In this document: positions 30,017 to 59,787 of the stretch, piece after piece
How positions within the stretch are numbered: the first letter of the stretch is position 1
Layout of the letters: every line of letters begins with the position of its first letter
NCBI GenBank assembly: GCA_963764715.1
Contig: CAVXTP010000022.1
Location: 275,735-339,734 of the forward strand
Source of the DNA: an uncultured Acidobacteriota bacterium
GTDB taxonomy: Bacteria; Acidobacteriota; Thermoanaerobaculia; UBA5066; Gp7-AA6
Reading direction: 5' to 3'
DNA: 64,000 nt
Made by a program: the position numbers and the translations under genes
The notes under the pieces: model-generated
What the model saw: only the letters and a program-made list of their open reading frames with translations
Database searches by the model: none
What the model was told of the DNA's origin: nothing

Positions 30017-31201
30017 ATGGCGCAATCCAACGGCGTTTTCATCCTCGACGGGGCGCGGACCGCGATGGCGGAGTACAACGGCGCTTTCGCCGACGTCACG
30101 GCGATCGACCTCGGCGTCCACGCCGCCCGGGAGGCCCTGCGCCGCAGCGGCGTCGAGCCCGGGCAGATCGACCACGCGATCTTCGGCAACGCCCTGCAGA
30201 CCTCGGGCGACGCGATCTACGGCGCCCGGCACGTGGCGCTCAAGGCGGGCGTGCCGAAGGAGGTCCCGGCGCTGACCGTCAACCGCCTGTGCGGGTCCGG
30301 CTTCGAATCGATCGTGCAGGGGGCGCACCGCATTCTCCTCGGGGAGGCGAAGACGGTGCTCGCGGGCGGGATGGAGAACATGTCCCAGGCGCCGCACGTC
30401 ATCCGGGGCGCCCGCAAGGGCTTTCGGCTCGGCCAGGGGCAGCTCGAGGACTCGCTGATGGTCGCCCTGCTCGACTCCTACTGCGGCCTCTACATGGCCC
30501 AGACGTCCGACCGCGTGGCCGGCAAGTACGGCATCACCCGGGCCGCGCAGGACGCCTATGCGCTTTCCTCGCAGCAGCGGGCGGCCGCGGCCTGGGACTC
30601 CGGGCGCCTCGCCGAGGAGGTCGTCCCCGTCGAGGTCAAGGCCGGGCGCAAGACCGTCCGCGTCGAGCGGGACGATCACCTGCGTCCGGACTCGACGCTC
30701 GAGGGCCTCGCCGGATTGCCCCCGTCGTTCGGGAAGGACGGGTCGGTGACCGCGGGGAACGCCTCGGGCATCGTGGACGGCGCCGCGGCGGTGGTCGTCG
30801 CCTCGGAGGATGCGGCGCGCGGCCGGAAGCCGCTCGGCCGCCTCGTGTCCTGGGCGGTCGTCGGCGTGGAGCCGGAGCTGATGGGTCTCGGTCCGGCGCC
30901 GGCGGCGCGCGCGGCGATCCAGAGAGCGGGGCTGTCCCAGAACGACATCGGCCTCTGGGAGATCAACGAGGCCTTCGCCGGCCAGATCCTCGGCGTGGTC
31001 AAGGAGCTCGGGCTCGACCTCGAGAAGTTGAACGTCAACGGCGGAGCGATCGCGCTCGGCCATCCCCTGGCCGCGACGGGCACGCGCTGCACGCTGACCC
31101 TGCTGAAGGAGATGCGGCGCCGCGGCGTGCGTTACGGGCTGGCCGGCGCCTGCATCGGCGGCGGGCAGGGCATCGCCGTCGTCGTGGAGTCGGCCGCGTA
31201 G
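30017..31201 (+). CDS. acetyl-CoA C-acetyltransferase (thiolase II)
   Basis: 394 aa; catalytic Cys block VNRLCGSGFESI, C-terminal NVNGGAIALGHPLAATG and GLAGACIGGGQG. Confidence 0.9.
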   Translation: MAQSNGVFILDGARTAMAEYNGAFADVTAIDLGVHAAREALRRSGVEPGQIDHAIFGNALQTSGDAIYGARHVALKAGVPKEVPALTVNRLCGSGFESIVQGAHRILLGEAKTVLAGGMENMSQAPHVIRGARKGFRLGQGQLEDSLMVALLDSYCGLYMAQTSDRVAGKYGITRAAQDAYALSSQQRAAAAWDSGRLAEEVVPVEVKAGRKTVRVERDDHLRPDSTLEGLAGLPPSFGKDGSVTAGNASGIVDGAAAVVVASEDAARGRKPLGRLVSWAVVGVEPELMGLGPAPAARAAIQRAGLSQNDIGLWEINEAFAGQILGVVKELGLDLEKLNVNGGAIALGHPLAATGTRCTLTLLKEMRRRGVRYGLAGACIGGGQGIAVVVESAA

Positions 31202-31222
31202 TCGGCGAGCGGGGATCGGGCG

Positions 31223-31561
31223 ATGAACTGGACCGAGCGGATCCTCGAGTTCCCGGTGCGGGCGGCGGCGGTCGACGACTTCCTGCGGGACCTGCGGGCC
31301 CGGGGAGCCGGGGACCTGAACGCCGTCCTGACGACGTTGAACGAGGGCGGCCTGTGCCGGGAAGTCGTGCGCCGCTGGACCGAGAGCGGCTGGATTGTCG
31401 TCGCGCCGAACACGCCGCTGCTGGCCCTGACCGGCCCGGCCTTCGAGCCGGAGCTGACGCTCTCGGACTTCTGCAGCGACATCGAGATCCTGGAGACGCC
31501 GGCCCTCGCGGGCCCGGAGGCGTCGACGGGGGAGGGGACGGAGGACCATGGCGATTCGTAA
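31223..31561 (+). CDS. hypothetical protein (112 aa) inside thiolase/hbd operon
   Basis: G/C-biased third positions; 3' end overlaps hbd start. Confidence 0.45.
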   Translation: MNWTERILEFPVRAAAVDDFLRDLRARGAGDLNAVLTTLNEGGLCREVVRRWTESGWIVVAPNTPLLALTGPAFEPELTLSDFCSDIEILETPALAGPEASTGEGTEDHGDS

Positions 31562-32402
31562 GGTCGGTGTTCTCGGCGCGGGCCTCATGGGCTCGGGCAT
31601 CGCCGAGGTGTGCGTGAAAGCGGGCTACGACACGGTGGTCCGCGAGGTCAGCGACGAGCTCGTCAAGAAGGGGCTCTCGCGCATCGAGGGCTCGCTCGGA
31701 AAAGCCGTCGAGAAGGGCAAGCTTCCGGCGGCCGACCGCGACGCCGCCTGGAAGCGGCTCCACTCGACGACGAAGCTCGAGGACCTCGCCGATTGCGACC
31801 TCCTGATCGAGGCGATCGTCGAAAACCTCGACGTCAAGAAGGAGACGTACCGCGCGCTCGACGCGGCGTGCAAGCCGGAGACGATCTTCTGCTCCAACAC
31901 CTCGTCGCTGACGATCACCGAGATGTCCGCGGCGACCAAGCGACCGGACCGGTTCGCGGGACTCCACTTCTTCAACCCGGTCCCCGTGATGAAGCTCGTG
32001 GAGGTCGTCCGCACGATCGCGACGTCCGAGGAGACCTTCGCGACGGTCTTCGAGTTCGCGAAGTCGCTCGGCAAGGAGCCGATCCGTACGCACGACAACT
32101 CCGGCTTCATCGTCAACCGTCTCCTCGTCCCGTACCTGCTGGACGCGGTCCGGGCCCTCGAGGAGGGCGTCGGCTCGCGCGAGGACATCGACAAGGGCAT
32201 GGAGCTCGGCTGCGGCCACCCGATGGGGCCGCTGAAGCTCCTCGACTTCGTCGGTCTCGACACGACCTACGCGATCGCCGAGATCATGTTTGCCGAGTAC
32301 CGGGAGAAGCGCTTCGCGCCGCCCCCGCTGCTGAAGCGCATGGTCCTCGCCGGGCGCTACGGGAAGAAATCCGGGCGAGGCTTCTACGAGTACGGAGGGT
32401 AA
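31548..32402 (+). CDS. hbd: 3-hydroxybutyryl-CoA dehydrogenase (3-hydroxyacyl-CoA dehydrogenase, NAD-binding)
   Basis: VGVLGAGLMGSGIAEV Rossmann; HFFNPVPVMKLVEVV; GFIVNRLL. Confidence 0.9.
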   Translation: MAIRKVGVLGAGLMGSGIAEVCVKAGYDTVVREVSDELVKKGLSRIEGSLGKAVEKGKLPAADRDAAWKRLHSTTKLEDLADCDLLIEAIVENLDVKKETYRALDAACKPETIFCSNTSSLTITEMSAATKRPDRFAGLHFFNPVPVMKLVEVVRTIATSEETFATVFEFAKSLGKEPIRTHDNSGFIVNRLLVPYLLDAVRALEEGVGSREDIDKGMELGCGHPMGPLKLLDFVGLDTTYAIAEIMFAEYREKRFAPPPLLKRMVLAGRYGKKSGRGFYEYGG

Positions 32403-32403
32403 C

Positions 32404-33183
32404 GTGAGCGACTTCGTTCTCGTCGAGACTTCGGACCGCGTCCGCACGCTGACCATCAACCGGCCGGACAAACTGAACGCGCTGAACGCGGAGGTCATGG
32501 CGGCCCTCGACGGCGCGCTCGACGCGGCCCGGGACGACACCTCGGTCGGCGTGGTGATCATCACGGGCTCGGGCGAGAAGTCCTTCATCGCGGGCGCCGA
32601 CATCGGCGAGCTCTCGAAGCTCACGCCCGTGGAGGGCCGGGAGCACGCGCGCCGGGGCCAGGCCGTCCTCGCGAAAATCGAGGCGCTCGGCAAGCCCGTC
32701 ATCGCCGCCGTCAACGGCTACGCGCTCGGCGGGGGATGCGAGCTCGCGCTCGCCTGCACGATCCGGATCGCCTCCGAGAACGCGCGCTTCGGACAGCCCG
32801 AGGTGAAGCTCGGAATCCTGCCGGGCTACGGCGGCTCGCAGCGGCTGGCCCGCATCGTCGGCGAGGGCCGGGCGATGCAGCTCTGCCTGACGGCCGAGCC
32901 GATCGACGCGGCGGAGGCCTGGCGGATCGGGCTCGTCAACAAGGTCGTCCCCCCGGGCGAGGCGGTCGCGGCCGCCCGCGCCATGGCCGCGCAGATCCTC
33001 GCGAACGGCCCGGTCGCCTGCCGGTACGTTCTCGAGGCGGTCCACCGCGGCCTCGACCTGCCCCTTCCCGACGGCCTCCTGCTCGAGGCCACGCTCTTCG
33101 GGCTCTGCGCCGCCACCTCCGACATGAGGGAGGGGATGACCGCGTTCCTCGAGAAGCGGCCGGCGCGGTTCACGGGGAAGTAG
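32404..33183 (+). CDS. enoyl-CoA hydratase (crotonase)
   Basis: GTG start; oxyanion-hole and catalytic blocks FIAGADI and NGYALGGGCELALACTIRIAS. Confidence 0.85.
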   Translation: MSDFVLVETSDRVRTLTINRPDKLNALNAEVMAALDGALDAARDDTSVGVVIITGSGEKSFIAGADIGELSKLTPVEGREHARRGQAVLAKIEALGKPVIAAVNGYALGGGCELALACTIRIASENARFGQPEVKLGILPGYGGSQRLARIVGEGRAMQLCLTAEPIDAAEAWRIGLVNKVVPPGEAVAAARAMAAQILANGPVACRYVLEAVHRGLDLPLPDGLLLEATLFGLCAATSDMREGMTAFLEKRPARFTGK

Positions 33184-34365: not shown

Positions 34366-34403
34366 GCCCTCCCGGTGCTAAACTCGGTGCGGGAGAAGAC
34401 CTC

Positions 34404-35657: not shown

Positions 35658-35666
35658 GGGCGCCGC

Positions 35667-37480: not shown

Positions 37481-37831
37481 TCAGTCCGCGGGGGCGATCG
37501 ACTCGACGAAGATCGTGTCGCCCTCGACCCGTCCCTCGATCCGCACGCGCCGGGCGGCGAACTCCGCGGGCGCGTCCTGATCGTCGAGCTGGTAGAACTT
37601 CGTCGTGGCGACGTCGATGAAGCCGTAGGGCGCGCCCTTCGCGACGCACTTGAGCGTGCACTCGCGGTCGTCCCGCCCCATCCCGCCCCGGGCGATCATC
37701 GGAGCGTGGTACGGGCCGCACTCCGCGTCGGTGATCCAGCCGAGGAAGGTCTCGGCGGCGGCCGGCGCGGCGGTGGCCAGGGCCAGGGCCAGGGCGACGG
37801 CGGCGAGGAGGATCGAGCGCTTCATCGACAT
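37481..37831 (-). CDS. small secreted Cys-containing hypothetical protein
   Basis: Signal peptide MKRSILLAAVALALALATAAPAAA; 4 Cys. Confidence 0.5.
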   Translation of the reverse strand: MSMKRSILLAAVALALALATAAPAAAETFLGWITDAECGPYHAPMIARGGMGRDDRECTLKCVAKGAPYGFIDVATTKFYQLDDQDAPAEFAARRVRIEGRVEGDTIFVESIAPAD

Positions 37832-37879
37832 TCGTTGGATGCCGCCGGGTGGCGGACGATACATGGCCGATCGCCGTCG

Positions 37880-40021
37880 TTACGGCCGGACGGTCGGCCG
37901 GGGGACCGGCGCCGGCTCGCCGGCCGCGCGTTTGGCGGCCGCGATGGCCGCGCGGAGCTTCTCGGAGAGACGCTGGATCTGCAGGTCGGCGAATTCTCCC
38001 CGGCCGCCGACGAGGGCCTCGCGGATCGCCGGCAGCGTTTCGGCCTCGTACGTCGGCAGCGGGGCATAAACCAGGTGGCGGAACCAGGGCCGGCCGGGGA
38101 TCCCCGGCGGATCGAGGAGCGCCCGTTCGAGCGAGAGGAGCCAGGCGTTGGCGTCGCGCAGCGCCGTGAATCCCATCCGGTCGGCCCCGACCCGCGCGGC
38201 GATCGCCTTCTGCGCGGCGCCGGCGCTCTCGCTCCAGGCCCGGCCGAGGGAGGCGAGCTCCGAGAGGCCGCGGGCATGGGTGGCGGCGGCGTCGAGGTCC
38301 TTGAGCTCTTCGGCGTACCGCGCGATCTCGCGGCCGTAGGCGGCCGCGTCGAAGGGAAGAGTGTCGGCGTTGGCGAAGCGCAGCGCCAGCATGCCCGCGT
38401 ACTTCGCCATCGCCGCGTGGTAGACGAAGCCCGGATCGCCCTGGGTCGCCATCCAGCGGTGCGTGTCGTAGACGGAGTGATAGACGCCGTAGGGGCCGTC
38501 GAAGACGAGGTCGGTGGAGGCGATGCCGAGGTGATTGAAGAACACGGTGTAGTCGGAGCCGCTTCCCAGGACCGCCACGGGCAGCTTCTCGGACGCGTCG
38601 GCCGATTCCCGCCGTTCGGTCCAGGCGTCGGCGAGGGTCTTGCCCGGGGTCTCGGGGTCCGGAAAGTCCCGGGCGAGCTCGCGCAGGGCCGTGAACAGGA
38701 GCGGCGAGGCCGAGGCCGCGAAGCGCTTCCCGAGGGCCGAGGCGTCGACGTTGATGCAGACCACCGCGTTCTGCTTGAGGTCGCGCTCGTACTGCTCGCC
38801 CCACTCGGTCGAGCCGGTCAGCGTGTACTCCTCGGCGTCCCATTCCCCGATGACGATCGTCCGCCGGGGCCGGAAGCCCTCGGCCGCGAGCTTTCCGAGG
38901 GCCCGCCCGAGGGCGAGCATGGAGGCCGTTCCCGACGAAGGATCGACGCCCCCGTAGACCCAGGCGTCGAAATGGTTCGAGAGCAGGACCTTGCGTCCCG
39001 GCTCGTCGGTGCCCCGGAGAGTCGCGACGACGTTCCGGATGGTCCTCTTCTCGCGCGTGTTCTCGATCTTGAGGGCGACGCGCACCGGGCCGGGGCCGAC
39101 GTTGTAGGTCCGGGTCACGGCGAGACCCTGCCAGGTCGAGCCCGGGACCGCCGGTCCGCGAAGCCGCTCGAGGATCTCGGCCGCGTCGCGGGCCGAGAGG
39201 GGCATCATGGGGATCTTCGGCAGGATCTCCGACTCGGACGCGGGGATGCGCCGCGCCTCGGGCGTCGACGCCCAGCCGGGCGTCAGCGGATCGCCGGGCA
39301 CGATGAAGTCGTAGACGTTGGAGCCGCGCTGGACGTGGGAAAGCGGTCCCCAGGGCCCGTCGGGATAGGCGGGGCCCTGGAACCACCCGTCGTCGACTGG
39401 GTCCGAGTAGACCAGGATCGCCAGCACGCCGCGCTTCTCGGCCTCGAGCGACTTTCCTCCGCGGTAGCCCCCGAAATACCGGGCGAGCGCGATCTTTCCG
39501 CGCACGTCGATGCCCATCCTGGCGAGCCGGTCGTAGTCTTCGGCGCTTCCGCGGTTGACGTAGACGACCTCGCCGACGACCTCGGCCGACGGCGAGTACG
39601 CGTTCCACGGAGGGGCGGCCTCGGGCACGTCGGTGTCGGGGTCCTCGGGGATCGGCAGCTCGCCCCGGGCGAGGGCCACGCCGGGCTCGCCGACGATCTC
39701 GAGCCGCGCACTGCGCGGATAGGACAGGAGGACCTCGTAGGACGGCATCTCCACCGACCAGCCGGCCTTCCGGTACTCGGCAGCCAGGTACTCGGCGACG
39801 CGGGCGTTGCCGTCGGTCCCGGCGACGTGCGGCGTCCGGGTCACCTCGCGGTGGATTTCCTCGCAGTCCTGCGGCCGCGCGAGCTCGAGGAGGCGCCGTT
39901 CGTATTCGCGCTGCCAGGCGGAGCGCTTCGGCGCGAACCCGGTCAGCTTCGGCGAAGGCGCCGGCCCCGCCGACAGCGCCAGGACGGCCGCGAGGGGAAG
40001 AAACGCCCGGGCGCGCTTCAC
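37880..40021 (-). CDS. M28-family peptidase of the transferrin-receptor/PSMA (glutamate carboxypeptidase II-like) type, secreted
   Basis: GTG start with GGAGG RBS, overlapping the permease stop (GTGA); PA domain, M28 Zn ligands (HFDAW, GEWDAEEY), C-terminal TfR dimerisation domain. Confidence 0.8.
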   Translation of the reverse strand: MKRARAFLPLAAVLALSAGPAPSPKLTGFAPKRSAWQREYERRLLELARPQDCEEIHREVTRTPHVAGTDGNARVAEYLAAEYRKAGWSVEMPSYEVLLSYPRSARLEIVGEPGVALARGELPIPEDPDTDVPEAAPPWNAYSPSAEVVGEVVYVNRGSAEDYDRLARMGIDVRGKIALARYFGGYRGGKSLEAEKRGVLAILVYSDPVDDGWFQGPAYPDGPWGPLSHVQRGSNVYDFIVPGDPLTPGWASTPEARRIPASESEILPKIPMMPLSARDAAEILERLRGPAVPGSTWQGLAVTRTYNVGPGPVRVALKIENTREKRTIRNVVATLRGTDEPGRKVLLSNHFDAWVYGGVDPSSGTASMLALGRALGKLAAEGFRPRRTIVIGEWDAEEYTLTGSTEWGEQYERDLKQNAVVCINVDASALGKRFAASASPLLFTALRELARDFPDPETPGKTLADAWTERRESADASEKLPVAVLGSGSDYTVFFNHLGIASTDLVFDGPYGVYHSVYDTHRWMATQGDPGFVYHAAMAKYAGMLALRFANADTLPFDAAAYGREIARYAEELKDLDAAATHARGLSELASLGRAWSESAGAAQKAIAARVGADRMGFTALRDANAWLLSLERALLDPPGIPGRPWFRHLVYAPLPTYEAETLPAIREALVGGRGEFADLQIQRLSEKLRAAIAAAKRAAGEPAPVPRPTVRP

Positions 40022-41391
40022 GCCGTCCTCCGCGGGCCGCGGCGCATCCGGTAGTAGACGGGCAGGCCGATGAGCAGGATCCCGATGCCCGCGAGTGTCT
40101 CCCGCGGCTGCGTGCGCACGGTATTGACCGCGAGCGCCACCGTGCTCGCGACGAAGACGAGCGGAACGACGGGATAGCCCCAGCAGCGGTAGGGACGGGA
40201 AAGGTCCGGTCGCTTGCGCCGAAGCACGAAGAGGGCGATTCCCGTGGCTGCGTAGGCGAGGATCACGAAGAAGGTGGCGTAGGTGTAGAGCTGGTCGTAG
40301 CGCCCCGAAAGACAGAGCAGGGACATCCACACGGCCTGGACGACGATCCCGAAGGACGGCGTCTTGAAGCGGGGATGAATTCGGGCGAACGGCTTCGGAA
40401 AGAGCCCATCCTCGGCGAGAGCGTAAACGACGCGTGGCGCCGGAACCAGGCCGGCCGACGTGCATCCGGCCGCGGCGGCCGTCACGGCCAGGGCGATGAC
40501 GAAGGCGGCGCCGCCCCCGAAGAGGCGGGTCGCGGCGAGGGCGGCGGGCTCCCCGACGTTCGCCATCTCGGCCGGCGGGATCGCCTTGAGGAAGACGGCG
40601 TTGGCAGCGACGTAGAGAAGTGTCAGGAGGCCCGTCCCGAGGATGAGGGCGAGCGGGAGGTTCCGGCGCGGGTTGGCGACTTCGCCCGCGACCGCCACGA
40701 TCTCGTTCCAGCCGTAGTAGGTCCAGAAGATCGCGACGAGGGCGGTGCCGATGCCCGCGAAGGTCAGCGCCGCAACCGGCCCCGGGGCCCCCGCGGCCGC
40801 CTCCGGCCGGGGCGCGAACGCGCCGCCGACCGCGATCCACAGCAGGGCGAGGAGGATCATCGAGGTGAAGACGCCCTGGATGCGGGCCCCCTCCTTGACC
40901 CCGACGTAATGCGTCGCCGAGAGCACCAGGGTCAGCGCGATCGCGACGAGCTGCGCCGCGTTGATCGGGACCGGCCCCACCGTGAAGAGCACGTTCGCGC
41001 TCGAAAGCGACGGGAAGAAGACCGAGAGGTACTGGGCGAAGCCGATGGCCACGGCCGCGTCGGACCCGATGATGATCACCCAGAAGGCGACCCAGGCGTA
41101 GAGGAACGCCGGGAGCTCGCCGAAGGCCTCCCGGAAGAACACGTACATTCCGCCGGCCTGCGGCATCATGGCGCCCATCTCCGCATAGACGAGCCCTCCG
41201 GCGATCGCGAGCAGCCCGCCCACGATCCAGAGGCCGAGGATCCAGTGCCCGTCGGGAACGGCCTTCGCGATCCCCGCGGGCGTCAGGAAGATGCCCCCAC
41301 CGACCGCGAGCCCGATGACGAGGAGGCTCGTGTCCCAGAGTCCGAGGCCCCGGGCGAGCTTGCCCCGGCTCTCGCCGGTCGACTCGCTCAC
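40018..41391 (-). CDS. APC-superfamily amino-acid permease
   Basis: 457 aa from GTG 41391 ([21 protein letters not shown]...); 12 TM; overlaps kce stop. Confidence 0.8.
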   Translation of the reverse strand: MSESTGESRGKLARGLGLWDTSLLVIGLAVGGGIFLTPAGIAKAVPDGHWILGLWIVGGLLAIAGGLVYAEMGAMMPQAGGMYVFFREAFGELPAFLYAWVAFWVIIIGSDAAVAIGFAQYLSVFFPSLSSANVLFTVGPVPINAAQLVAIALTLVLSATHYVGVKEGARIQGVFTSMILLALLWIAVGGAFAPRPEAAAGAPGPVAALTFAGIGTALVAIFWTYYGWNEIVAVAGEVANPRRNLPLALILGTGLLTLLYVAANAVFLKAIPPAEMANVGEPAALAATRLFGGGAAFVIALAVTAAAAGCTSAGLVPAPRVVYALAEDGLFPKPFARIHPRFKTPSFGIVVQAVWMSLLCLSGRYDQLYTYATFFVILAYAATGIALFVLRRKRPDLSRPYRCWGYPVVPLVFVASTVALAVNTVRTQPRETLAGIGILLIGLPVYYRMRRGPRRTA

Positions 41392-42212
41392 GCGGCGGCG
41401 GGGATGCGCAGGATCTGCCGCGCCTCCTCGACCGAGGCCGGCTCGCGGCCCACCTCCCGGGCGATCCGGACGATCCGCTCGACGAACCGGGCGTTGGAGT
41501 CGGCGAGCTCGCCCTTGCGGTAGTAGATGTTGTCCTCGAACCCGACGCGCACGTGGCCTCCCATCGCGATCGCCATCGTGGCCATCGCGGTCTGCCGCCG
41601 CCCGATTCCGGCGACGGTCCAGGTGCATCCCGCCGGAATCGAGCGGGCGAAGTGCGCCAGGTTCTCGGCGGTGGCCGCGGCGGCCCCCGGAACGCCGAGG
41701 ACGAAGTCGAAGTGGGCGGGCGGCTGGAGCTGCCCCTTCGAAAAGAGCATGTCGGCCGTGGCGAGCATGCCGACGTCGAAGATCTCGAGCTCGGGCGTGA
41801 TGCCGAACTTGCGGATGCGGGCGAGGATCGTGCGGATCGTCGGGAGCGAGTTCTCGAAGATCTCGTCGCCGAAGTTGCAGGTCCCGAGCGTCAGGGTCGC
41901 CATCTCGGGCTTGAGCTCGAGCGCCGCGATGCGCTCCTCGACGCCCATCCCGACGGCCCCGCCGGTCGAGAACTGCTGGAGGATGGGGCAGCGGGCGCGG
42001 ATCGCGGACGAGTAGGCGCGGAACGTCTCGAGGTCCTGCGTCGGCGTGCCGTCCGGGCGCCGGCCGTGGACGTGGCCGATCGTCGCCCCCGCGGCGTGGG
42101 CCCGGGCGTACTCCTCGCCGACCTCGTCGGGCAGGAGGGGAAGATGCGGCTGCTGCTCCCGCATCACTTCGGCGCCGACCCCGGCGACCGTGATCAGGAG
42201 GGCGTCGCTCAC
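41388..42212 (-). CDS. kce: 3-keto-5-aminohexanoate cleavage enzyme (BKACE/DUF849 family)
   Basis: 274 aa TIM-barrel BKACE family; adjacent to kamDE. Confidence 0.75.
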
Positions 42213-42592
42213 CGCGGGGCCCGCTGCTTGTCGAGTGGAACGACGCAGGTTCCGGTGGCGCGGGCGACGACCAGGGGCGGGTCGAGGACCTGCGCGGCCG
42301 ATCCCCCGGAGGGCGCGATGACCTTGCGCGCCTCGAACCGAATCTGGCGGGACGTCCGGCCCGCGCCCGTCAGCTCGGCCTCGATTTCGAGGTAGTCGCC
42401 GCCGTGGACGGGAGCCAGGAACTCGACCGACGCATAGGCCCGAAAGAGGCCTTCGTCGCCGTCGCGCCGCACGAGGAGCTCCGTCGCGGCGTCGCCGAAG
42501 AGCTTGAGGACGAAGGCGCCGTCGACGAGGCCGCCGCCGTAGTGCGCCTGCTCGGCCCCGACCCGGAGGCGGAGCAGCACCCGGTCGCTCAC
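42209..42592 (-). CDS. kal: hot-dog fold protein, candidate 3-aminobutyryl-CoA ammonia-lyase
   Basis: 127 aa from a GTG overlapping kamE stop; size, fold and position between kamE and kce match Kal of lysine fermentation operons. Confidence 0.5.
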
Positions 42593-43347
42593 GCTCCCGC
42601 CTCCGCGGGCCTCTGGCGGCGGGTGATCTCTTCGAGGAGGAAGCCGGCGACGCGGGAGGCCGTCGTGCCCGGGCCGAAGCCGGCGTCGTAGCCGAGCTCC
42701 TTGGCGAGCGCGTGGTCGATCCTCGCCCCGCCGGCGACGAGCACGACCCGGTCGCGCAGCCGTTCGGCCTCGAGCATGTCGACGAGGTCGGTCATGTGGC
42801 GGACGTGGATGTCGTTCTGCGTCACGGTCGCGGAGACGAGGACGGCGTCCGCCTTCGTCTCCCGGATCTTCCGGGCGAGCTCGGCGACCGGGACCTGCGC
42901 CCCGAGGTTGCGAGCGTCGAAGCCGTGGTAACGCTCGAGGCCGTAATCGCCGGCGAAGCCCTTCATGTTGAAGATGGCGTCGAGGCCCACGGTGTGGGCG
43001 TCGGACTCGAGGGCGCACCCGAGCACGACGAGCCGGCGGCCGAAACGGCGGGCGATCTCGGCGTCGATCTCGTCGCGGGTCAGCGCGGCGGCGGGAGCCT
43101 CCTCGGCGGTGATCGACGCCACGTCGATGTCCTGCGTCGCGCGCCCGTAGACCACGAAATAGGTGAAGTCGGGCGCGATCGCCTCGGCGAGCGTGACGTA
43201 GGGCTCCCGCAGGCCCATCCGGGCGACGTAGCGCTTGGCGGCCTCGGTCGCGACCGCCGAGCGGGGGATCGGGAGCGTGAAGGAGACCTGCACGGCGCCG
43301 TCGCCCTTCTTGTCGCCGTACGGCCGGACGAGCCGCGGCGGGCTCAC
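42589..43347 (-). CDS. kamE: lysine 5,6-aminomutase beta subunit (B12-binding)
   Basis: N-terminal [21 protein letters not shown]; B12-binding DxHxxG ([10 protein letters not shown]); GTG start overlapping kamD stop. Confidence 0.8.
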
Positions 43348-44903
43348 GCGCGGGCTCCGGCCGGCGCCGGCGTCCAGGCCTCCATGAAGGGATTGGCGTA
43401 GCCGGCGTCCTTGCGCAGCACGCCGTCGTAGCCCCGGCCGCCGTCGCGGCGCCGGCGCGTGTCGGCGAAGACGCCTTCGGCCAGCGCCCCGAAGAGGCCG
43501 CGGCGGGCGACGTCCTGGAGGATCGCCTGCGCCCCGGCGAGGACGGCGCGGGCCCGGGCCACGATCCGGCCGTCGGGATCGAAGCGCAGCTCGTCGCGCA
43601 GGTGCCGGGCGTTCGACCGGATCGTCTTCATCTGGTCGATCGCGAGCCACCGGTCGTGGAGGAAGGGCGTGTGGAGGGCCTCGGTCAGCATCCCGAGCAG
43701 GTGGATCGACTGTCCCGTGGCGACCGACGTCAGCGCGAAGAGCGTGTTCTGCTGGTAACCCCGGAAAATGTTGCCGGTCATGTGCTTGGTCGGCGGCATG
43801 TACTTCAGGGGCGCGTCCGGGAAGATCTCGCGGGCGGCCTCGGCCTGGGCGATCTCGTAGAGCAGCCCGTCCTCGAGCGCCGGGTCGATCTCGAAGGCGT
43901 GGCCGAGGCCGATCTGCCAGTCTTCGAGTCCCGCGTCCTTCGCGAGACGCTCGTTGATGAACTGCGACGCGAGGACGGCCGGGGCCTGCTCGACCGCGTC
44001 GGCCGTCGTGAGGTAGTTGTCCTCGCCCGTGTTGATCACGACGCCGGCGACCGCGTTGATGCGGCGCGAGAAGCTCTGGTCGATCAGGGTCCGCAGCGGG
44101 TTGATGTCGCGGAAGATGATGCCGTACAGCGCGTCGTTCAGCATCATGTCGAGGCGCTCGAGGGCGCCCATCGCCGCGATCTCCGGCATGCAGAGGCCCG
44201 AGCAGTAGTTGACGAGGCGGACGTACCGGCCGAGCTCGGGCTCGAGTGCGTCGAGGGCGGCGCGCATGAGGCGGAAGTTCTCCTGCGTGGCGTAGGTCCC
44301 GCCGAAGCCCGAAGTCGTCGCGCCGTAGGGCACGTGGTCGAGGAGCGACTGCGCCGTCGAGCGGATGACGGCGATGCACTGCGCGCCGGCCCGCGCCGCG
44401 GCCTCGGCCTGGACCACGTCCTCGTGGATGTTGCCGGTCGCGACGATCGCGTAGAGGAGAGGGAGCTCCTCCGGCGGATGGCTCGCCTGCCGGCGCTCCC
44501 GCTCGGCGCGGTTGGCGCGCACGCGGGCGAGCGTCGACTCGACGTGGCGGGCGACGGCGTCCCGCCAACGGGGGTGCTCCGCCTGGGCCTCGGCCCGGCG
44601 GGGGTCCGAGAGCCGGGCCGCGGCTTCCGCGACCGTCGAAGCGTCCGAGGCGAGTGCGCTTCCCATCCACACGGCGGCGCCGCGTCCGAGCTTGCCGCAC
44701 TCCTGGAGGGCCTCGACGACGCGGTTGGGAACCGGGACCTCCTCGGCGTCGACGCCGTCGACTCCGAGCAGGCGCAGGACCGTCCGTTCGGTCGCGACGG
44801 TGGTGAAGGGCTCGGTCTCGAGGCGGACGCCGTCGGCGACCTGCCGGCCGAGACGCCGGCAGTCCTCGATCGTTTCTCGAGAGAGGCCCAGTTTCGAGGC
44901 CAT
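43344..44903 (-). CDS. kamD: lysine 5,6-aminomutase alpha subunit (PLP/TIM-barrel)
   Basis: 519 aa, collinear with the KamD family. Confidence 0.8.
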
Positions 44904-44931
44904 CGGCGGCGAAAGTATAGCCGCCCCGATT

Positions 44932-45837
44932 CTATGACCGGAGGTCAGCGACGAGATCGAAGATCGGCGGCCCGGGGATCTCGCGGGCGACGGCCTCGAG
45001 GAACTTCGCGGCCGGCAAGGGCGGACGCGCCGGCGCCGTGGGGTTGACGGTCACGGCCAGGAGACGCGCGGGACGCCGCACCGCGAGCGCGACGCCGGTC
45101 TCCGCGAGCCGGCGGCGAAACCCGGGGGAGAGGAAGTACGCCGTGAAGTCCTCGCCGACGAGGGTGTCGCCGGGCGCCGGGGGGTCTTCGCCGAGCGCGA
45201 GCTCGGTGATCGCGCCCGGCCGCTCCCGGACCCGGGCGCCGGGCGCCGGAGGCCCGAGGCCGATGAGCTCGGCGGCCGACCGCGCCGCCGCGAGGACCGA
45301 CGGGAGCGAGTCGCCGGCCGACATGCCGACCGAAAGAACGATGCCGTCGCAGACCCGCCCGGCCGCGAAGGCCCGGCGGCCGACGGCGCCGTCGAGAAGA
45401 ACGACGGCCGCGCCCGCGGCCTCGAGCTCCGCCGCGGTGCGCGCGAGCTCCGAGGCGGTGGACGGACCGATGACCTCGAGCTCGCCTTCGCCCTCGGCCC
45501 GGCGAAGCTCCACCGGACCGAACCGCGTCGCGAAGGGGAGGGTCGCGATCGGCGCCAGGGGAAACGCGGCCGCCTCGAACGTCGTTCGGGCCGAGGCGAC
45601 GAGCTGCCCGGGAAAGACGCGGAACCGGGGCTTGGGCTCTCCCGTGATCGCGTCGAACTCCTCGCCGTCCCGTCCCGCCGAGGTCGTGGCCGCGGGAACG
45701 CCCGCGCGATGAAGCTCGGCGAGAACGGCCGTGAGGGCGGTCGTCTTGCCGGCGTTCTTGGCGAGACCGAGAAAGGCGATGCGCCGCGCGCCGGACTCGC
45801 GCAGGAGCGAGGCCAGGGCCTGCGCGGCGACGCTCAC
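44932..45837 (-). CDS. P-loop NTPase of unknown function embedded between kdd and kamD
   Basis: 301 aa from a GTG; Walker A GLAKNAGKTT; hydrophobic DGAVG and SVG blocks. Confidence 0.5.
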   Translation of the reverse strand: MSVAAQALASLLRESGARRIAFLGLAKNAGKTTALTAVLAELHRAGVPAATTSAGRDGEEFDAITGEPKPRFRVFPGQLVASARTTFEAAAFPLAPIATLPFATRFGPVELRRAEGEGELEVIGPSTASELARTAAELEAAGAAVVLLDGAVGRRAFAAGRVCDGIVLSVGMSAGDSLPSVLAAARSAAELIGLGPPAPGARVRERPGAITELALGEDPPAPGDTLVGEDFTAYFLSPGFRRRLAETGVALAVRRPARLLAVTVNPTAPARPPLPAAKFLEAVAREIPGPPIFDLVADLRS

Positions 45838-45841
45838 GCGC

Positions 45842-46888
45842 TCACGCGCCCGGCCGGCCCGCGAGGTCCGCGAAGGCCCGGGCGAGCGCGGGATGGCGGC
45901 GAAGGAGGTCGAGAGCGAGGCCGTCGTGGCCGGGAACGAAGCCGTTCCCGATCGCGAGCCGCGTGGGCTTCGCGAGGCCCTCGGCGCCGAGGGCGGCGGC
46001 CGAGAACGACGTCGCCATGCCGAAGAACACGACGGTGCCGTCGTCCCGGGCGCAGAGGACGCTCGCGGCCTCGGTCCCCGAGGCGTTGGCGACGTTGACG
46101 ACGAGGTCCGCCAGCCCGCCGGAGGTCGCAGTCTCGATCGCCGAGAGCATGGCCACCGGATCGCGGGCGTCGACCGAGAAGACCTCGTCGGCGAAGCCGA
46201 GGCCCCGGGCGCGGTCGGCGGCCGCCCGGCCCGGCTCGACCGCGAGGACACGCCCGTTTCCGCCGACGGCCTCGCGCGCCGCCGCCAGGCACAGGAGACC
46301 CGCCTTGCCCGTCCCGATGACGAGGATGGTCTGCCCGGCCTTCGCGTCGCGCCGGACCGCGGCGGGCGCGCCGGCGACGTCGAAGGCGGCGAGCGCGACC
46401 TCCTCCGGGAAATCGTCGGGAAGGCGGGCGAAGAGCGTGCGCGCGAAGAGGATCGCCGTGCCGCGGGCCTCCACGCGCTCGGTCTCGACGTGCACCGCGC
46501 CGATCGAGTCCAGGGACAGGGGCGTCAGGGTCAGGGAGACGAGGGTCGCGATCGGCGTGCCGGGGAGGAGGTTGCCGGCGGCGGGGTGGCGGGGACCGAC
46601 CGTCGCGACCTCGCCGAGAAGCATGCCGCCCGAGCCCGTGACCGGGTTCTGCATCTTGCCGCGCTCGCGCACGATGCGGACGATCTGGTCGCGCACGGTC
46701 TCGCCCGTCGAGGCCTCCGCCTCGCGGAGCTGCCGGAACGAGGCGGAGTCGATCGAGAGCGCGCGCACCGAAACGGCGATCTCGTTCTCGAGCGCGCGCG
46801 GCGTCGCGTCGAGGCGCCGCGCCAGCTGCGGAAGGACGCCCGGGGGATCGAGCGAGCGGTGGAGCCCGAAGGGATGGGGCGCCGTCAT
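45842..46888 (-). CDS. kdd: candidate L-erythro-3,5-diaminohexanoate dehydrogenase (MDR-like, Rossmann VIGTGKAGLL)
   Basis: 348 aa; GroES-like N-terminal domain plus NAD(P) Rossmann; context immediately upstream of kamDE. Confidence 0.6.
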   Translation of the reverse strand: MTAPHPFGLHRSLDPPGVLPQLARRLDATPRALENEIAVSVRALSIDSASFRQLREAEASTGETVRDQIVRIVRERGKMQNPVTGSGGMLLGEVATVGPRHPAAGNLLPGTPIATLVSLTLTPLSLDSIGAVHVETERVEARGTAILFARTLFARLPDDFPEEVALAAFDVAGAPAAVRRDAKAGQTILVIGTGKAGLLCLAAAREAVGGNGRVLAVEPGRAAADRARGLGFADEVFSVDARDPVAMLSAIETATSGGLADLVVNVANASGTEAASVLCARDDGTVVFFGMATSFSAAALGAEGLAKPTRLAIGNGFVPGHDGLALDLLRRHPALARAFADLAGRPGA

Positions 46889-46898
46889 CGGGCCCGCG

Positions 46899-47702
46899 TC
46901 ACGGCACGAGGCCGACGATCCGCAGGGGCCCGCCCGAGCCCCCGGCGATCTTCATCGGAAGGGCGATGACCCAGGCGCCCCATTCCGGAAGGTCCTCGAG
47001 GTGGGCGACGTTCTCGAGGCCGAAGACGTCGGCCCCGTTCGCGATGACGTGGACGACGAAGTCCCTGGACGCGCCGTAGTCGATCGAGGCCGTGTCGACC
47101 CCGAGCGCTCCGACCTTGCGCTCCGACACGAGATAGCGGGCCGCCTCCTCGCCGTAGGACGGGAAGTGGAGCTTCGAGGCGTCGCCCGGCGTGTCGTCGC
47201 CGAGGTAGGCCTTGCGGTCGGGCCAGCGGGCGCTCCACCCGGTCCGCAGGAGGACGATGGCGCCGGCGGGCACCGGGCCGTGGGCCTTCTCCCAGGCCTT
47301 CACGTCCTCGAGTCGAAGGCGGTAGTCCGGATTCTTCGCGGCCGCGTCGCGGACGTCGATCACGGCGGCCGGCGCGATGAGGCGCCGGACGGGGATCTTG
47401 TCGGCCGTCTGGCCGGCCTCGGCGAAGTGGCTCGGCGCGTCGAGGTGCGTCCCGCCGTGCTCGGGCGTGCAGAAGGTGTTCGACCGGTAGAACCAGCCGC
47501 CCGGCGTTTTCCCGTCCGCGAGCGACTTGAGCTCGAAGGCCGAGGGCGAGGTCGGCCAGTAGAGCGTCTTGTCGTCGAAGGGATGCGTCAGGTCGACGAC
47601 CTTCGCCGTCGCGAGGTCGGGCGGCTTCGGCGAGCCGGCGGCCGACGCGGAGGCGGCGGCGGCGAGAATCGCGGCGATCGCGAGGGCGCGGCGCATGATC
47701 AC
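46899..47702 (-). CDS. cyclase-family protein (kynurenine formamidase-like), secreted
   Basis: Signal peptide; HGGTHLDAPSHF metal-binding motif. Confidence 0.7.
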   Translation of the reverse strand: MIMRRALAIAAILAAAASASAAGSPKPPDLATAKVVDLTHPFDDKTLYWPTSPSAFELKSLADGKTPGGWFYRSNTFCTPEHGGTHLDAPSHFAEAGQTADKIPVRRLIAPAAVIDVRDAAAKNPDYRLRLEDVKAWEKAHGPVPAGAIVLLRTGWSARWPDRKAYLGDDTPGDASKLHFPSYGEEAARYLVSERKVGALGVDTASIDYGASRDFVVHVIANGADVFGLENVAHLEDLPEWGAWVIALPMKIAGGSGGPLRIVGLVP

Positions 47703-48652
47703 TCCTCGGCGGCGCCGCCCGCCCGGGCGAGCTGCTCGGGCTTGACGGACTCCGCCTTGAACTTCCTGGCCGAGGCCAGCATCTTGTCGAGCGTCTCGTC
47801 GAAGTCGGCCTTCGCGCCCCGCTGGAACCGGAGCGGGTTGATGCGCGCGACGACGAAGGTCCGCAGGTACGGGCTGTCGAAGCCCTTCTCCTTGAGCGCC
47901 TTCATCGCGGCCGCGACGGCCTCCTCGAGCTCCATGAGCCTCGCCGCGCGTTCGGCCCGGACCTCGAGCGACTTCGCGAGCGGCTTGGCGAGAAACGCGT
48001 CGACGCGCTTCAGGAGCGGATGGTAGGCGCCGCCGGCGAAGCGGCCGTTCTTCTCGTAACAGACGCCGAGCGTCAGGAACGCGGCCTCCTCGAACTCGAG
48101 CGCGTAGTCCTTCTCGGCGAGATCGCCGGCGGCGAGGTCGCGCGCCATGCGGATGACCTCGAGCGACTTCTCCCGGAGGTTGTGGGCCTTCTCGGTGTTC
48201 AAGGCCAGGATTTTGTAGGCGATCTCGGGCTCGGGGAGGACGAGCGCGGTGATGGAGCGGGCGCCGAGGTTGCGTAGCGCCGCGAGGCGGTGGTGCCCGT
48301 TGGGCGTCCGGTACACGCCGTCGCTTCCGCGCACCGCGATGATCGGGTCGAGGAAACGGCCGAGGGCGTCGATCACGCCCGTGAGGCGCTTGACGTGCGA
48401 CTCCGAGAGGTCACGCTGGAAGGCCGTCGGCTCGACCTTCTCGATGGGGAGCGAGGCGAGGAGCTGCCAGTGCCCGCCGAGAGGATCGCGGTAGAGCGCC
48501 AGGGCCGCGCCGCCGTCCCCGCGGACCGCGTCGGCGAGCGCCGCCGCCGCCGGGGGTGGCGTTCCCGCCGCCGCTTCGGCGGCTTCGAGGCCGCGGGACT
48601 TCGAGTCGGCCTTCTTGCGTCGCTTGCCGGCCATGCGAGCGGATGCTTTCAC
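47699..48652 (-). CDS. ParB/sulfiredoxin-like nuclease-domain protein
   Basis: ParB N-terminal-domain motifs RLTGVIDALGRFLDPIIAV and GHHRLAAL. Confidence 0.6.
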   Translation of the reverse strand: MKASARMAGKRRKKADSKSRGLEAAEAAAGTPPPAAAALADAVRGDGGAALALYRDPLGGHWQLLASLPIEKVEPTAFQRDLSESHVKRLTGVIDALGRFLDPIIAVRGSDGVYRTPNGHHRLAALRNLGARSITALVLPEPEIAYKILALNTEKAHNLREKSLEVIRMARDLAAGDLAEKDYALEFEEAAFLTLGVCYEKNGRFAGGAYHPLLKRVDAFLAKPLAKSLEVRAERAARLMELEEAVAAAMKALKEKGFDSPYLRTFVVARINPLRFQRGAKADFDETLDKMLASARKFKAESVKPEQLARAGGAAEE

Positions 48653-48688: not shown

Positions 48689-50896
48689 CTACCAGGCGAT
48701 CAGGCCGTCGGCCGCCTGCTCCTGCAGGTACCGTTCGACCATCGCCGGCGTCGTCTCCCCGTAGTACCACCAGCCGGCAGCGAGCGCCTCGGCGCAGACG
48801 CGTCGGGCGATCTCCGCGGCGTTCGTCCTGCCGTCGATCCAGGCCATGGCGGCCGTGCCCATGAGGGCCGAGAGCTTCGGGGAATCGTCGCCGGTCGGGA
48901 CGGGAGCGGTCTTCGCGCCGGCTTTCGGGTTCCGCCGCGCGGCCTCGGCGGCCTCCCGGCGCTCGCGCTCGGCGCGCTTGTCGGCGGCGCGTTTGTCGGC
49001 CACGCGCTTCTCGAGGGCCATCCACGCGTCGAGCGTCGTCACGGCGAAGCGGGGCGTCCGGGTCGCGAGGCGCGCGAGCACCGGGTCCTCCGCCGACGGG
49101 CGGGCCGGAAGGCGCGCGGCGAGGGCGGTTCCCGTCGCCCGGACGGCCTCGGCGCTCGCGGTGACCGCGGACCCGGAATCGGCCCCGATCGACCGGGCGG
49201 ACTCGACGGCCGCCGCCTCGATCCCGGCCGCGACCGCGAGGAGGTCCGCGGCCGCCCGCCGGCGCTCGTCGTCGGTGCCTTTTCCGTCGCGCAGCCAGGT
49301 CTGGGCGGCGGCGAGGTTCGCCGCCAGGCGCCCGCTTGCCCGCGCGGAGACGAAGGCCGCGAGGAACGGGACGTCCTTCGCGTCGGCGTTGGCGAGCCAC
49401 CAGGCCGTCGCCGCGACCACGAAGGCGTTGCGCTTCAACTGCGTCGGGTCGATCTGCCACAGGTCGTCCCCGGAGGAGTGGATGTACTCGTCCGGCCAGT
49501 TGGTCAGCGTCGTGCCGGGCACCTTCACCCATGGATCGTTGAACACGAGGTGGTCGGTCGAGTCGAAGTAGGGGACCGCCTTCGCGCGGTAGGGCTCCCG
49601 CGTTCCGAGGCGCGAAAGGATCGGCTTCGAGAAGGGCGAACCGGCCGGCGGCGTCTGCGCCTGCCAGGCGGCCAGGTACGCGTTGTTCCCCTCGACGACG
49701 GCTTCGAGGATGCTCTGCTGGACGTCGGAGAGGAAGGACGGCCGAGACCACGGCGTGCGGGCCATGTACTCCGTGCGGTGCCCGTCGGACTGCTTCGCGC
49801 CGACCATGTCCTGGTTGAGGTTGGCGAGGAACGTCTTCTCCTCGCCGGGATGGTCGGCAAAGTACCGGTACTCGGAATAGATCTCGTCGGCCCACCAGAA
49901 GCGGATCCCGCGGCGGGGGCGGGGGAGCTTGCCGTCGGCGATCAGCCGCGTCAGCGCGCGGCCGATCTCGAGCACGTTCGCGACGCCGGACTGGTCGTCG
50001 TTGGCCGAGAACTTCTCCTCCTGGAGGTGCGCCGTCAGGACGATCTCCGGGAGCGAGGGATCGGTGCCCGGGATGCGCGCCTCGACCATCGCGGTCTTGC
50101 GCTCGGGCAGGACGACCGAGTCGATCGCGACGCGGACGTTCATGGGCTGCGGGGGCTTCGCCTCGCCCGCGCCCCAGCGACGCGCTTCCTCGCCCCGCAT
50201 CCGGTCGGACAGGGCCTTGCCCTGGCGGGCCGAAATCACGATCGCGAAGGTCGTCTTCTCGCCCTTCGGGCCGTCGTGGTCGGGGACCGAGGTCCATCCG
50301 ACCTGGTCGGCCGAGTCGGCGAGGGCGTTGAGGCGCGAAGAGGACCACGAGAGGATCCCCGCCGCCCCGCGCTTCCAGACGGCCTGCTCCATGACGAGCC
50401 CGACGCTGCCGTAGGCCAGGACGATCCTGCCGCGCACGTCCTTGCCGGTGTAGTCGGCCGGGGTCTCGCCCGCGCCCACGTCGACGAGCTCGGCCGTGAC
50501 GGACGCCGGTCGGGAGTTGTCGGCGATCGACGTCGCGACCTCGGCATAGGACGCGATCTTCGTTTCGACCTGGCTCCCGGAAGGGCCCTCGAGAAGCCAG
50601 GCCTCGGCGCTCCGGCAGGTCCAGTTGGGCTCCTGTGCGACCTGGTCGATCCAGCGGACGTTCTGGAGCCCCGCCGCCTTCGCCCGGGCTTCGACCTCGC
50701 GGGCGACCGCGAAGAACCCCTCCGAGCCGGAGGGCTTGTGCCACTGCGTCGTGATGCGGAGGGTCTCGAAGGCGAGGTCGCCCGAGAGCTCGTTGACGAG
50801 CGCCCGTTCGGTCTTCGCGTCGACGAAGGGCGAGCTCTGGGCGAGACCGACGACGGGCAGGAGGATGGCGAGGATACCGAGGACCGTCTTACGCAT
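48689..50896 (-). CDS. M28-family metallopeptidase with PA domain, secreted
   Basis: 735 aa, signal peptide MRKTVLGILAILLPVVGLA. Confidence 0.7.
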   Translation of the reverse strand: MRKTVLGILAILLPVVGLAQSSPFVDAKTERALVNELSGDLAFETLRITTQWHKPSGSEGFFAVAREVEARAKAAGLQNVRWIDQVAQEPNWTCRSAEAWLLEGPSGSQVETKIASYAEVATSIADNSRPASVTAELVDVGAGETPADYTGKDVRGRIVLAYGSVGLVMEQAVWKRGAAGILSWSSSRLNALADSADQVGWTSVPDHDGPKGEKTTFAIVISARQGKALSDRMRGEEARRWGAGEAKPPQPMNVRVAIDSVVLPERKTAMVEARIPGTDPSLPEIVLTAHLQEEKFSANDDQSGVANVLEIGRALTRLIADGKLPRPRRGIRFWWADEIYSEYRYFADHPGEEKTFLANLNQDMVGAKQSDGHRTEYMARTPWSRPSFLSDVQQSILEAVVEGNNAYLAAWQAQTPPAGSPFSKPILSRLGTREPYRAKAVPYFDSTDHLVFNDPWVKVPGTTLTNWPDEYIHSSGDDLWQIDPTQLKRNAFVVAATAWWLANADAKDVPFLAAFVSARASGRLAANLAAAQTWLRDGKGTDDERRRAAADLLAVAAGIEAAAVESARSIGADSGSAVTASAEAVRATGTALAARLPARPSAEDPVLARLATRTPRFAVTTLDAWMALEKRVADKRAADKRAERERREAAEAARRNPKAGAKTAPVPTGDDSPKLSALMGTAAMAWIDGRTNAAEIARRVCAEALAAGWWYYGETTPAMVERYLQEQAADGLIAW

Positions 50897-50965
50897 GTTC
50901 GCTCCGCTTCAAGATTGTCTGGGCGCGAACTCTACCCCACGTCCCCGGCGGGCGGACGGTGTGCG

Positions 50966-52024: not shown

Positions 52025-52124
52025 CTTTCGTCCCCTCTCGAACGGCATCGGCCGCCCGAATCCTGGACGAGTCACCGCCCCTGCGCGCCGTCTTCGGGAC
52101 GAACCCTCCGTTCGGAGCGTCGAG

Positions 52125-58464: not shown

Positions 58465-58468
<4 letters not shown>
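57395..58468 (-). CDS. PLP-dependent aminotransferase, class I/II
   Basis: 357-aa tail of the 2159-aa artefact ORF; NPHNPSG and SLTKSFGLASLRCGW (PLP-Lys) blocks; ATG overlaps permease stop. Confidence 0.75.

Positions 58469-59787
<1,319 letters not shown>

Follow-up and report, generated by a model that had tools for sequence, protein, structure and literature searches.

A 64,000-nucleotide stretch of DNA from an uncultured Acidobacteriota bacterium of the class Thermoanaerobaculia (GenBank assembly GCA_963764715.1, contig CAVXTP010000022.1, positions 275,735 to 339,734 of the forward strand; hereafter the window) carries a minus-strand block of genes that we read, on balance, as the 3,5-diaminohexanoate branch of lysine fermentation, the pathway of Kreimeyer et al. 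(2007, as cited in PMC3149608). The block probably comes with its own permease and draws on beta-lysine made from L-lysine by a lysine 2,3-aminomutase (KamA) encoded at an unlinked site in the genome. Its enzyme content alone is not new, as the pathway is a textbook one and its proteins are already named by current curated models. What is new is the placement of this known pathway in a new phylum, in the class Thermoanaerobaculia, with an organization particular to the lineage: the block is present-or-absent cargo on a conserved backbone, its enzymes appear to form the most divergent branch among the 80 closest clusters, and it consistently lacks kamA and kamC. A full-text literature search returned no paper linking lysine-fermentation genes with Acidobacteria or Thermoanaerobaculia.

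A minus-strand gene string with the enzymes of beta-lysine catabolism

At approximately 71% GC, the window yields noisy raw lists of open reading frames (ORFs), and the coding frame at each locus was chosen by GC content at third codon positions (GC3). A preliminary description of the window, made from the letters alone, had noted a string of ten genes on the minus strand, and their coordinates, in-frame GC3 (0.91–0.96), and tight spacing bear this out. Read 5′ to 3′, the ten encode a ParB-like protein, a cyclase, Kdd, a P-loop protein, KamD, KamE, Kal, Kce, an APC-family permease, and an M28 peptidase. Adjacent genes overlap by 4 bp at six junctions (ParB-like/cyclase, KamD/KamE, KamE/Kal, Kal/Kce, Kce/APC, and APC/M28), and the other three junctions are gaps of 4, 10, and 28 bp. 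No frameshift was found in the window copy of the block, and all of its reading frames are intact. An eleventh co-directional gene, the last, begins 15 bp past the peptidase gene and encodes a small exported DUF5818 protein (37481..37864, minus strand; 127 aa; PF19135); beyond it lies an SLT gene that converges from the opposite strand. On the upstream side, three further co-directional genes precede the ParB-like gene, with gaps of 36–70 bp.

We assigned the pathway enzymes using curated NCBIfam equivalog models and their cut-offs, together with Pfam. Four of the five (Kdd, KamD, KamE, and Kal) pass their equivalog cut-offs. KamD, the predicted alpha subunit of lysine 5,6-aminomutase (43344..44903, minus strand), scores 751 bits on NF052384 against a cut-off of 600, aligning over residues 4–509 of 511, and 750 bits on PF09043. 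KamE, the predicted beta subunit (42589..43347, minus strand), contains OAM_dimer and B12-binding domains and scores 335 bits on NF052385 against a cut-off of 280. Its B12-binding motif, DxHxxG, is present as DAHTVG, and a lysine 11 residues downstream of the motif histidine corresponds to the one that binds pyridoxal 5′-phosphate (PLP) in structure 1XRS. The segment spanning this motif and lysine aligns exactly with that of solved lysine 5,6-aminomutase beta subunits, and the closest solved structures to KamE are named D-lysine 5,6-aminomutase. D-ornithine 4,5-aminomutase (OraSE) and other B12-dependent mutases share with KamDE the B12-binding Rossmann domain with its DxHxxG motif, the OAM_dimer domain, and a TIM-barrel partner; KamDE, however, reaches only 123–124 bits on the ornithine aminomutase model (123 for KamD), and models for methylaspartate and methylmalonyl-CoA mutases give at most 35 bits. 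The lysine 5,6-aminomutase models thus far outscore those for ornithine, glutamate, and methylmalonyl-CoA mutases, in line with the kamD and kamE calls of the preliminary description, and the equivalog scores and conserved motifs together support the prediction that KamDE is a lysine 5,6-aminomutase.

The calls of the remaining three enzymes are likewise supported. Kdd, the predicted L-erythro-3,5-diaminohexanoate dehydrogenase (45842..46888, minus strand; 348 aa), is encoded by the first gene of the variable block defined below and scores 226 bits on NF052381 (cut-off 200) and 33.8 bits on ADH_zinc_N (cut-off 31.8). Kal (42209..42592, minus strand), a hot-dog-fold protein with a 4HBT domain, scores 166.6 bits on NF052388 (cut-off 160). 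Kce (41388..42212, minus strand) is a TIM barrel of the BKACE family, matching PF05853 with 326 bits (cut-off 24.8) over positions 2–273 of 274. On the Kce equivalog model, NF052387, it scores 381.2 bits, 0.8 bit under the cut-off of 382; this is nonetheless its best match, the next-best BKACE function scoring 239. A phmmer comparison with the solved Kce structure from Cloacimonas (2Y7D) gave E = 4e-69. The two sequences are identical in the alignment at the zinc ligands (two His and one Glu, in H-x-H and E-D), at the Glu that acts in catalysis, and at the Ser, Thr, Arg, and Asp residues that contact the substrate.

Between kdd and kamD lies a gene for a 301-aa protein (44932..45837, minus strand) that the preliminary description had called simply a P-loop protein. 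The P-loop is there, with the Walker A sequence GLAKNAGKTT, and a more exact identity can be proposed. The protein scores 188 bits on the KamB model NF052386 (cut-off 210) and shares 28% identity, across its N-terminal 179 aa, with an authentic KamB from Alkalithermobacter (itself at 421 bits); judged by these matches, it is a diverged KamB-like reactivase subunit of lysine 5,6-aminomutase. The usual partner of KamB, the MutS-like ATPase KamC, is missing: a KamC query from locus L014 (NF052383) matched nothing in the window with an E-value of 1 or lower, and KamC was not found in the loci of three close relatives (L001–L003) either. If these genomes turn out to have no kamA, the block would provide a natural case for testing whether KamDE maintenance requires the KamC ATPase.

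Taken together, these assignments outline a route. The APC permease would import an amino acid, and L-beta-lysine would most likely arise from L-lysine through a lysine 2,3-aminomutase whose gene lies at another genomic site. KamDE, dependent on adenosylcobalamin and PLP, would move the terminal amino group of L-beta-lysine to yield 3,5-diaminohexanoate, with the KamB-like protein keeping the enzyme active. Kdd would oxidize this product to 3-keto-5-aminohexanoate, which Kce would combine with acetyl-CoA to form 3-aminobutyryl-CoA and acetoacetate, and Kal would eliminate ammonia from 3-aminobutyryl-CoA to leave crotonyl-CoA. With flux presumably in this direction, the net conversion would be of beta-lysine to crotonyl-CoA, acetoacetate, and two ammonia. 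A plausible sink is provided by a crotonase, a 3-hydroxybutyryl-CoA dehydrogenase (Hbd), and a thiolase encoded nearby on the backbone, which could take crotonyl-CoA to acetyl-CoA. The course from beta-lysine to crotonyl-CoA is the one that the preliminary description had proposed, and the curated profiles and the catalytic residues agree with it.

The block is variable cargo on a conserved backbone

We compared seven related genomes, six of which carry the block (the window, L001, L002, L003, L201, and L208). Gene order from the ParB-like gene to the M28 peptidase gene is shared by the five relatives of the window that carry it, with two exceptions: the cyclase gene is missing from L201, and the peptidase gene is replaced in L002. 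The DUF5818 gene is kept in L001 and L003. The seventh genome, L207, is the only one of the seven without kdd; it lacks everything from kdd through the peptidase and instead has two ABC-transporter genes between its cyclase gene and SLT. Its backbone is otherwise retained, with identities to the window of 86% for DnaE, 82% for GuaA, 78% for the ParB-like protein, 73% for the cyclase, 82% for XerD, 82% for the isopropylmalate-synthase-like protein, 80% for Hbd, and 82% for thiolase; SLT and crotonase are likewise in place.

Because L207 keeps the backbone without the segment from kdd to the peptidase, we regard the block as variable cargo. The functional unit is a variable block of eight to nine genes (37481–46888), and the ParB-like and cyclase genes are its backbone neighbors. 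The preliminary description had placed both of these genes in the catabolic operon; physically they do sit in the gene string, but as conserved backbone that stays when the block is gone they drop out of the pathway. Its characterization of the pathway as an accessory trait gains from this comparison, there being one syntenic relative without the block. Thiolase, Hbd, and crotonase are encoded on the opposite strand, 5–8 kb from the block, and, being retained in the kam-less L207, are not dedicated to it.

The ABC-transporter pair of L207 and the replaced peptidase of L002 suggest a local hotspot of cargo exchange where the block is inserted. The L207 pair is of the ABC-2 type and occupies positions 12413–13964 of that locus, the slot matching 37481–46888 of the window. 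At the borders of the block we found only GC-rich repeats at chance level and no recognizable marks of a mobile element. The adjacent tyrosine recombinase was considered as a mobility gene and rejected, for it is the housekeeping XerD and part of the backbone. Nor is recent horizontal transfer of the block supported: its GC content and tetranucleotide signature show no anomaly, the 40–48 kb portion of the window resembling the rest (r = 0.90).

An Rfam scan of the whole window gave no family at its gathering score, cobalamin and lysine riboswitches included, and a scan for promoters and terminators gave nothing above shuffled expectation. Since kdd begins only 10 bp past the cyclase gene, with no visible promoter region between them, transcription probably reaches the block from the ParB-like and cyclase genes by read-through.

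Two irregularities in this set of loci deserve mention. The XerD frame of the window (35658–36644, plus strand) runs for 329 codons without a stop, and 304 residues of it can be aligned with the XerD of L207 (328 aa), yet it contains no in-frame ATG, GTG, or TTG before 36102, leaving the N-terminal domain without a canonical start codon; the gene may use a non-canonical start, its start codon may be mutated, or the sequence may contain an error. In L003, approximately 1 kb (8952–10000) separates the kamB-like gene from kamD. Two long ORFs overlap here on opposite strands and match no family; the one on the plus strand is in frame with kamD, of which it could be an N-terminal extension.

The Thermoanaerobaculia enzymes form a putative deep branch

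Among species-representative genomes, the close relatives of the window KamD are 94%, 83%, and 80% identical to it and all come from metagenome-assembled genomes (MAGs) of Acidobacteriota or Thermoanaerobaculia. All other matches, which span Clostridia, Bacteroidales, Fusobacteria, aerobic Bacilli, and Asgard archaea, are at most 60% identical. The soil-type Gram-negative lineage guessed at in the preliminary description was right in kind, as the source belongs to the Acidobacteriota and to a class reported to be ubiquitous in soil, where it was found in 78.8% of datasets (PMC11778308).

The five enzymes of this clade are 43–60% identical to those of all other clusters, whereas the others share 62–76% identity with one another, a range that holds even when bacteria are compared with Asgard archaea; by this measure, the Thermoanaerobaculia enzymes represent a deep branch, the most divergent among the 80 closest clusters. 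We counted substitutions at columns with a conservation of 95% or more across all other clusters (L004–L080), with five control clades that included Asgard archaea. Fixed replacements in the Thermoanaerobaculia clade fall at 9 of 180 such columns in KamD, 8 of 71 in KamE, 10 of 88 in Kdd, 12 of 84 in Kce, and 4 of 53 in Kal, against 0–3 in the control clades. Examples in KamD, in window numbering, are D175Q, E198S, N390A, N424Q, and Y427T/M. Some of the replaced columns of Kce differ as well in the Cloacimonas enzyme, whose function is biochemically proven, so the replacements are not proof of changed specificity.

This mutual identity of 62–76% is that of the canonical enzymes of Asgard archaea, Firmicutes, Bacteroidota, and Fusobacteria. 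It is consistent with the canonical cluster having spread extensively by horizontal transfer, unlike the isolated Thermoanaerobaculia branch.

Comparison with known systems

The canonical cluster, kal-kce-kdd-kamA-kamB-kamC-kamD-kamE, is found in Fusobacterium, Clostridia, Bacteroidales, and Intestinimonas (PMC4697335). The block resembles it in encoding all five catalytic proteins (Kdd, KamD, KamE, Kce, and Kal) and in having a KamB-like P-loop gene, and it resembles several canonical loci in having crotonase and Hbd nearby. It differs in lacking kamA and the gene for the MutS-like KamC, in its order (kdd-kamB-kamD-kamE-kal-kce), and in the addition of a permease and an exported peptidase related to glutamate carboxypeptidase II (GCPII). 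CoA-transferase or butyrate-forming genes were not found in the window. In ‘‘Candidatus Cloacimonas’’ and some Bacteroidetes, the 3-aminobutyryl-CoA aminotransferase Kat replaces Kal (PMC3149608). The block shares the kdd, kce, kamD, and kamE core with this route but has Kal rather than Kat, and it contains no class-III aminotransferase.

The source of beta-lysine and alternative readings of the block

Pfam scans took in almost every GC3-supported ORF in the window, and many of these were also compared with NCBIfam. The only radical-SAM protein among the scanned ORFs is lipoyl-synthase-like, and none of them has a CoA_trans, acyl-CoA dehydrogenase, or Etf domain. A tblastn search with a KamA query gave no match in the 64-kb window; the same query recovers kamA at 61–85% identity in 53 of 80 other loci. 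Profile scans and tblastn are therefore in agreement with the preliminary description, which had noted the absence of both kamA and an acetoacetate CoA-transferase (atoAD) from the window.

How often kamA and kdd travel together was counted in 39 genome loci in which kamD is flanked by at least 8 kb on both sides. Thirty-four of these contain kdd, with kamA adjacent in 30; the four without it are three Thermoanaerobaculia genomes and one Spirochaetales MAG. The lack of kamA beside kdd in the Thermoanaerobaculia block is thus unusual. Clusters of other lineages are often fragmented, however, with KamDE alone or with kdd and kce at another site, which makes an unlinked kamA plausible. We looked for such a gene in metagenome contigs by scanning for the motif MYCRHCTRRR in GC-rich codons, followed by a protein search. 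The scan yielded 120 loci, about a dozen of them with a GC content of at least 69%, and the relatives of the best kamA candidate are from Thermoleophilia and Coriobacteriia. KamD encoded at kamA loci is typically 50–60% identical to that of the window, the best value of 74% being for a short fragment. Tetranucleotide similarity singled out only two loci, L129 and L114, neither of them assignable: L129 is a complete canonical cluster whose KamD is 56% identical, and L114 holds a truncated kamA.

Several of our results weigh against reading the block as a lysine-fermentation branch supplied by an unlinked kamA. Neither kamA, kamC, nor an acetoacetate-activating enzyme was found in the 64-kb window, and none was found within 10 kb of kamD in L001–L003; the gene calls of L201 and L208 include no radical-SAM gene beside the block. 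Outside the Thermoanaerobaculia, kamA is adjacent in 30 of the 31 kdd-containing clusters, and the metagenome motif scan for a high-GC kamA recovered actinobacterial genes only. Moreover, the KamB-like and Kce proteins score just under their curated cut-offs, and the lineage-specific substitutions, at 5–14% of conserved positions, may leave room for altered specificity. If kamA is just unlinked, as we favor, the block is an unremarkable trait of amino-acid catabolism in a bacterium that degrades peptides.

Should the genomes lack kamA altogether, the block might instead consume beta-lysine or beta-lysine conjugates made by other organisms, with exported hydrolases (the GCPII-like peptidase and possibly the isatin-hydrolase-like amidase) releasing the substrate and the APC permease importing it. 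Free beta-lysine, the methanogen osmolyte N-epsilon-acetyl-beta-lysine, and beta-lysine-containing antibiotics are candidate sources. This would accord with the lack of kamA in the cluster of all six block-carrying genomes, set against its adjacency in nearly all other kdd clusters; with the permease that accompanies the block in six of six and the exported peptidase in five of six; and with the signal-peptide-like N-termini of at least five neighboring proteins (the cyclase, both M28 peptidases, an MBL-fold hydrolase, and the DUF5818 protein). We nevertheless think it doubtful. The absence of kamA is established for the loci and the window rather than for whole genomes, the cyclase-family amidase is a backbone protein that stays when the block is gone, other DNA takes the place of the peptidase gene in L002, and the permease sequence gives no substrate specificity. 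The fuller proposition, that a widespread soil lineage of Acidobacteria possesses a kamA-independent scavenging module that takes beta-lysine or a related beta-amino acid through to acetyl-CoA and relies on a single-subunit, KamB-like reactivase, strikes us as unlikely. Were it true, ‘‘lysine fermentation’’ enzymes would here serve a cross-feeding or detoxifying route and not fermentation, and in genomes without kamA, the block would be a route for beta-amino-acid scavenging in soil.

The need for kamA would also vanish if the enzymes, though true homologues, acted on a related beta- or omega-diamino acid. The clade-specific replacements at near-invariant columns of all five enzymes, the low identity to other clusters, and the sub-threshold scores of Kce and the KamB-like protein could all be understood in this way. 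Yet four of the five enzymes pass their equivalog cut-offs, the catalytic and substrate-contact residues of Kce are unchanged relative to 2Y7D, some of the changed columns vary in the proven Cloacimonas enzyme too, and the logic of the five-enzyme set is specific to a six-carbon 3,5-diamino acid; we judge a shift in specificity improbable. Entry by way of imported D-lysine, with KamDE acting as a D-lysine 5,6-aminomutase, would fit the names of the nearest solved structures, and the lysine 5,6-aminomutase family accepts both D-lysine and L-beta-lysine. The product, 2,5-diaminohexanoate, is not a precursor of a beta-keto acid, however, and because Kdd, Kce, and Kal, which are inherited together with KamDE, suit the 3,5-isomer alone, we consider this entry very improbable. 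Finally, a cluster without kamA and kamC and with a diverged KamB-like protein could be the decaying, non-functional remnant of one that was once complete. Such decay is hard to reconcile with intact frames, the high GC3 of the genes, and a pattern of purifying conservation, in which the enzymes are 72–94% and the KamB-like protein 58–88% identical to those of the three species-level relatives and catalytic motifs are preserved, and we give it scarcely any credence.

Permease, peptidase, and cyclase

The APC-family amino-acid permease (40018..41391, minus strand; 457 aa) scores 204 bits on AA_permease_2 and reaches the cut-off of no NCBIfam equivalog; we presume that it imports the pathway substrate. 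A second APC permease gene in the window overlaps a class I/II aminotransferase gene (57395–59787, minus strand). This pair is kept in L207 and L208, and it adjoins a ParB-like gene in L205, of the Polarisedimenticolia.

The exported M28 peptidase (37880..40021, minus strand; 713 aa) has PA, Peptidase_M28, and TFR_dimer domains, all above their Pfam cut-offs, and matches human GCPII, also known as PSMA, with E = 1.6e-118 over residues 47–671. Both its domain architecture and this homology fit the TfR/PSMA type named in the preliminary description.

The exported cyclase-family protein (46899..47702, minus strand), an isatin-hydrolase-like metal amidohydrolase, has a Sec-type N-terminus and matches PF04199 with 152 bits; on the arylformamidase model TIGR03035, it reaches 52 bits against a cut-off of 223. 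Among solved structures it is nearest to isatin hydrolases and to a protein named ‘‘cyclase family protein,’’ not to kynurenine formamidase. The idea that it is a dedicated hydrolase of the pathway is weakened by its distribution, since the gene stays in L207, where the kam block is absent, and is missing from L201, which carries the block.

The ParB/Srx-fold protein and other neighboring genes

The ParB-like protein at the head of the gene string (47699..48652, minus strand; 311–317 aa) gave no Pfam hit at threshold, ParB_N included, and only weak matches to Noc, the serine kinase SerK, and sulfiredoxin. Its N-terminal domain shares the fold of the ParB/Srx superfamily, which comprises the ParB/Noc CTPases, sulfiredoxin, SerK, and SbnI. 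Superposition of an AlphaFold model on SerK, SbnI, and Srx is good only for the ~80 residues at the N-terminus, the overall TM being at most 0.3. The motif NGHHR resembles the DGHHR of the free serine kinase SerK. Unlike ParB, the protein has no recognizable helix-turn-helix or CTP-binding GERR box, and its helical C-terminal half is unmatched; no parA neighbors the gene in the window or in the homologue loci that we examined.

The family is broad, with 1311 clusters at 50% identity, and hundreds of relatives at 71% identity or more occur in soil and sediment metagenomes, some labeled Thermoanaerobaculia. In WOR-3, Fervidibacterota, Methylomirabilales, Polarisedimenticolia, and one more acidobacterial lineage, the homologues stand among unrelated genes with no kam genes beside them, and this changing context ties the family neither to lysine catabolism nor to partition. 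Given this breadth, the unrelated neighbors elsewhere, and retention in the kam-less L207, we rejected the protein as a new pathway component or a substitute for KamC. In the homologue loci (L202–L206), it is always encoded by a lone gene whose surroundings differ; two further acidobacterial lineages have this gene divergently beside an APC permease gene, one of them with an aminotransferase gene as well.

Upstream of the ParB-like gene, the minus strand (48689–53999) encodes a second exported M28 peptidase, an exported MBL-fold hydrolase, and a membrane HAMP-SpoIIE phosphatase. This peptidase (735 aa) has no PA or TFR domain, the hydrolase is SoxH-like, and the phosphatase is of the PP2C type; the presence of all three varies across relatives. 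On the opposite side of the block, backbone genes on the plus strand (30017..33183) encode the thiolase, a 112-aa protein, Hbd, and the short-chain enoyl-CoA hydratase (crotonase), as assigned with Pfam and NCBIfam. Directly after these genes lies a further plus-strand pair (33193–35657), encoding a 390-aa protein that matches no Pfam or NCBIfam family and, in translational coupling with it, a 431-aa protein resembling isopropylmalate and homocitrate synthases. The latter scores below every equivalog cut-off, and the pair is conserved in L001, L002, and L207.

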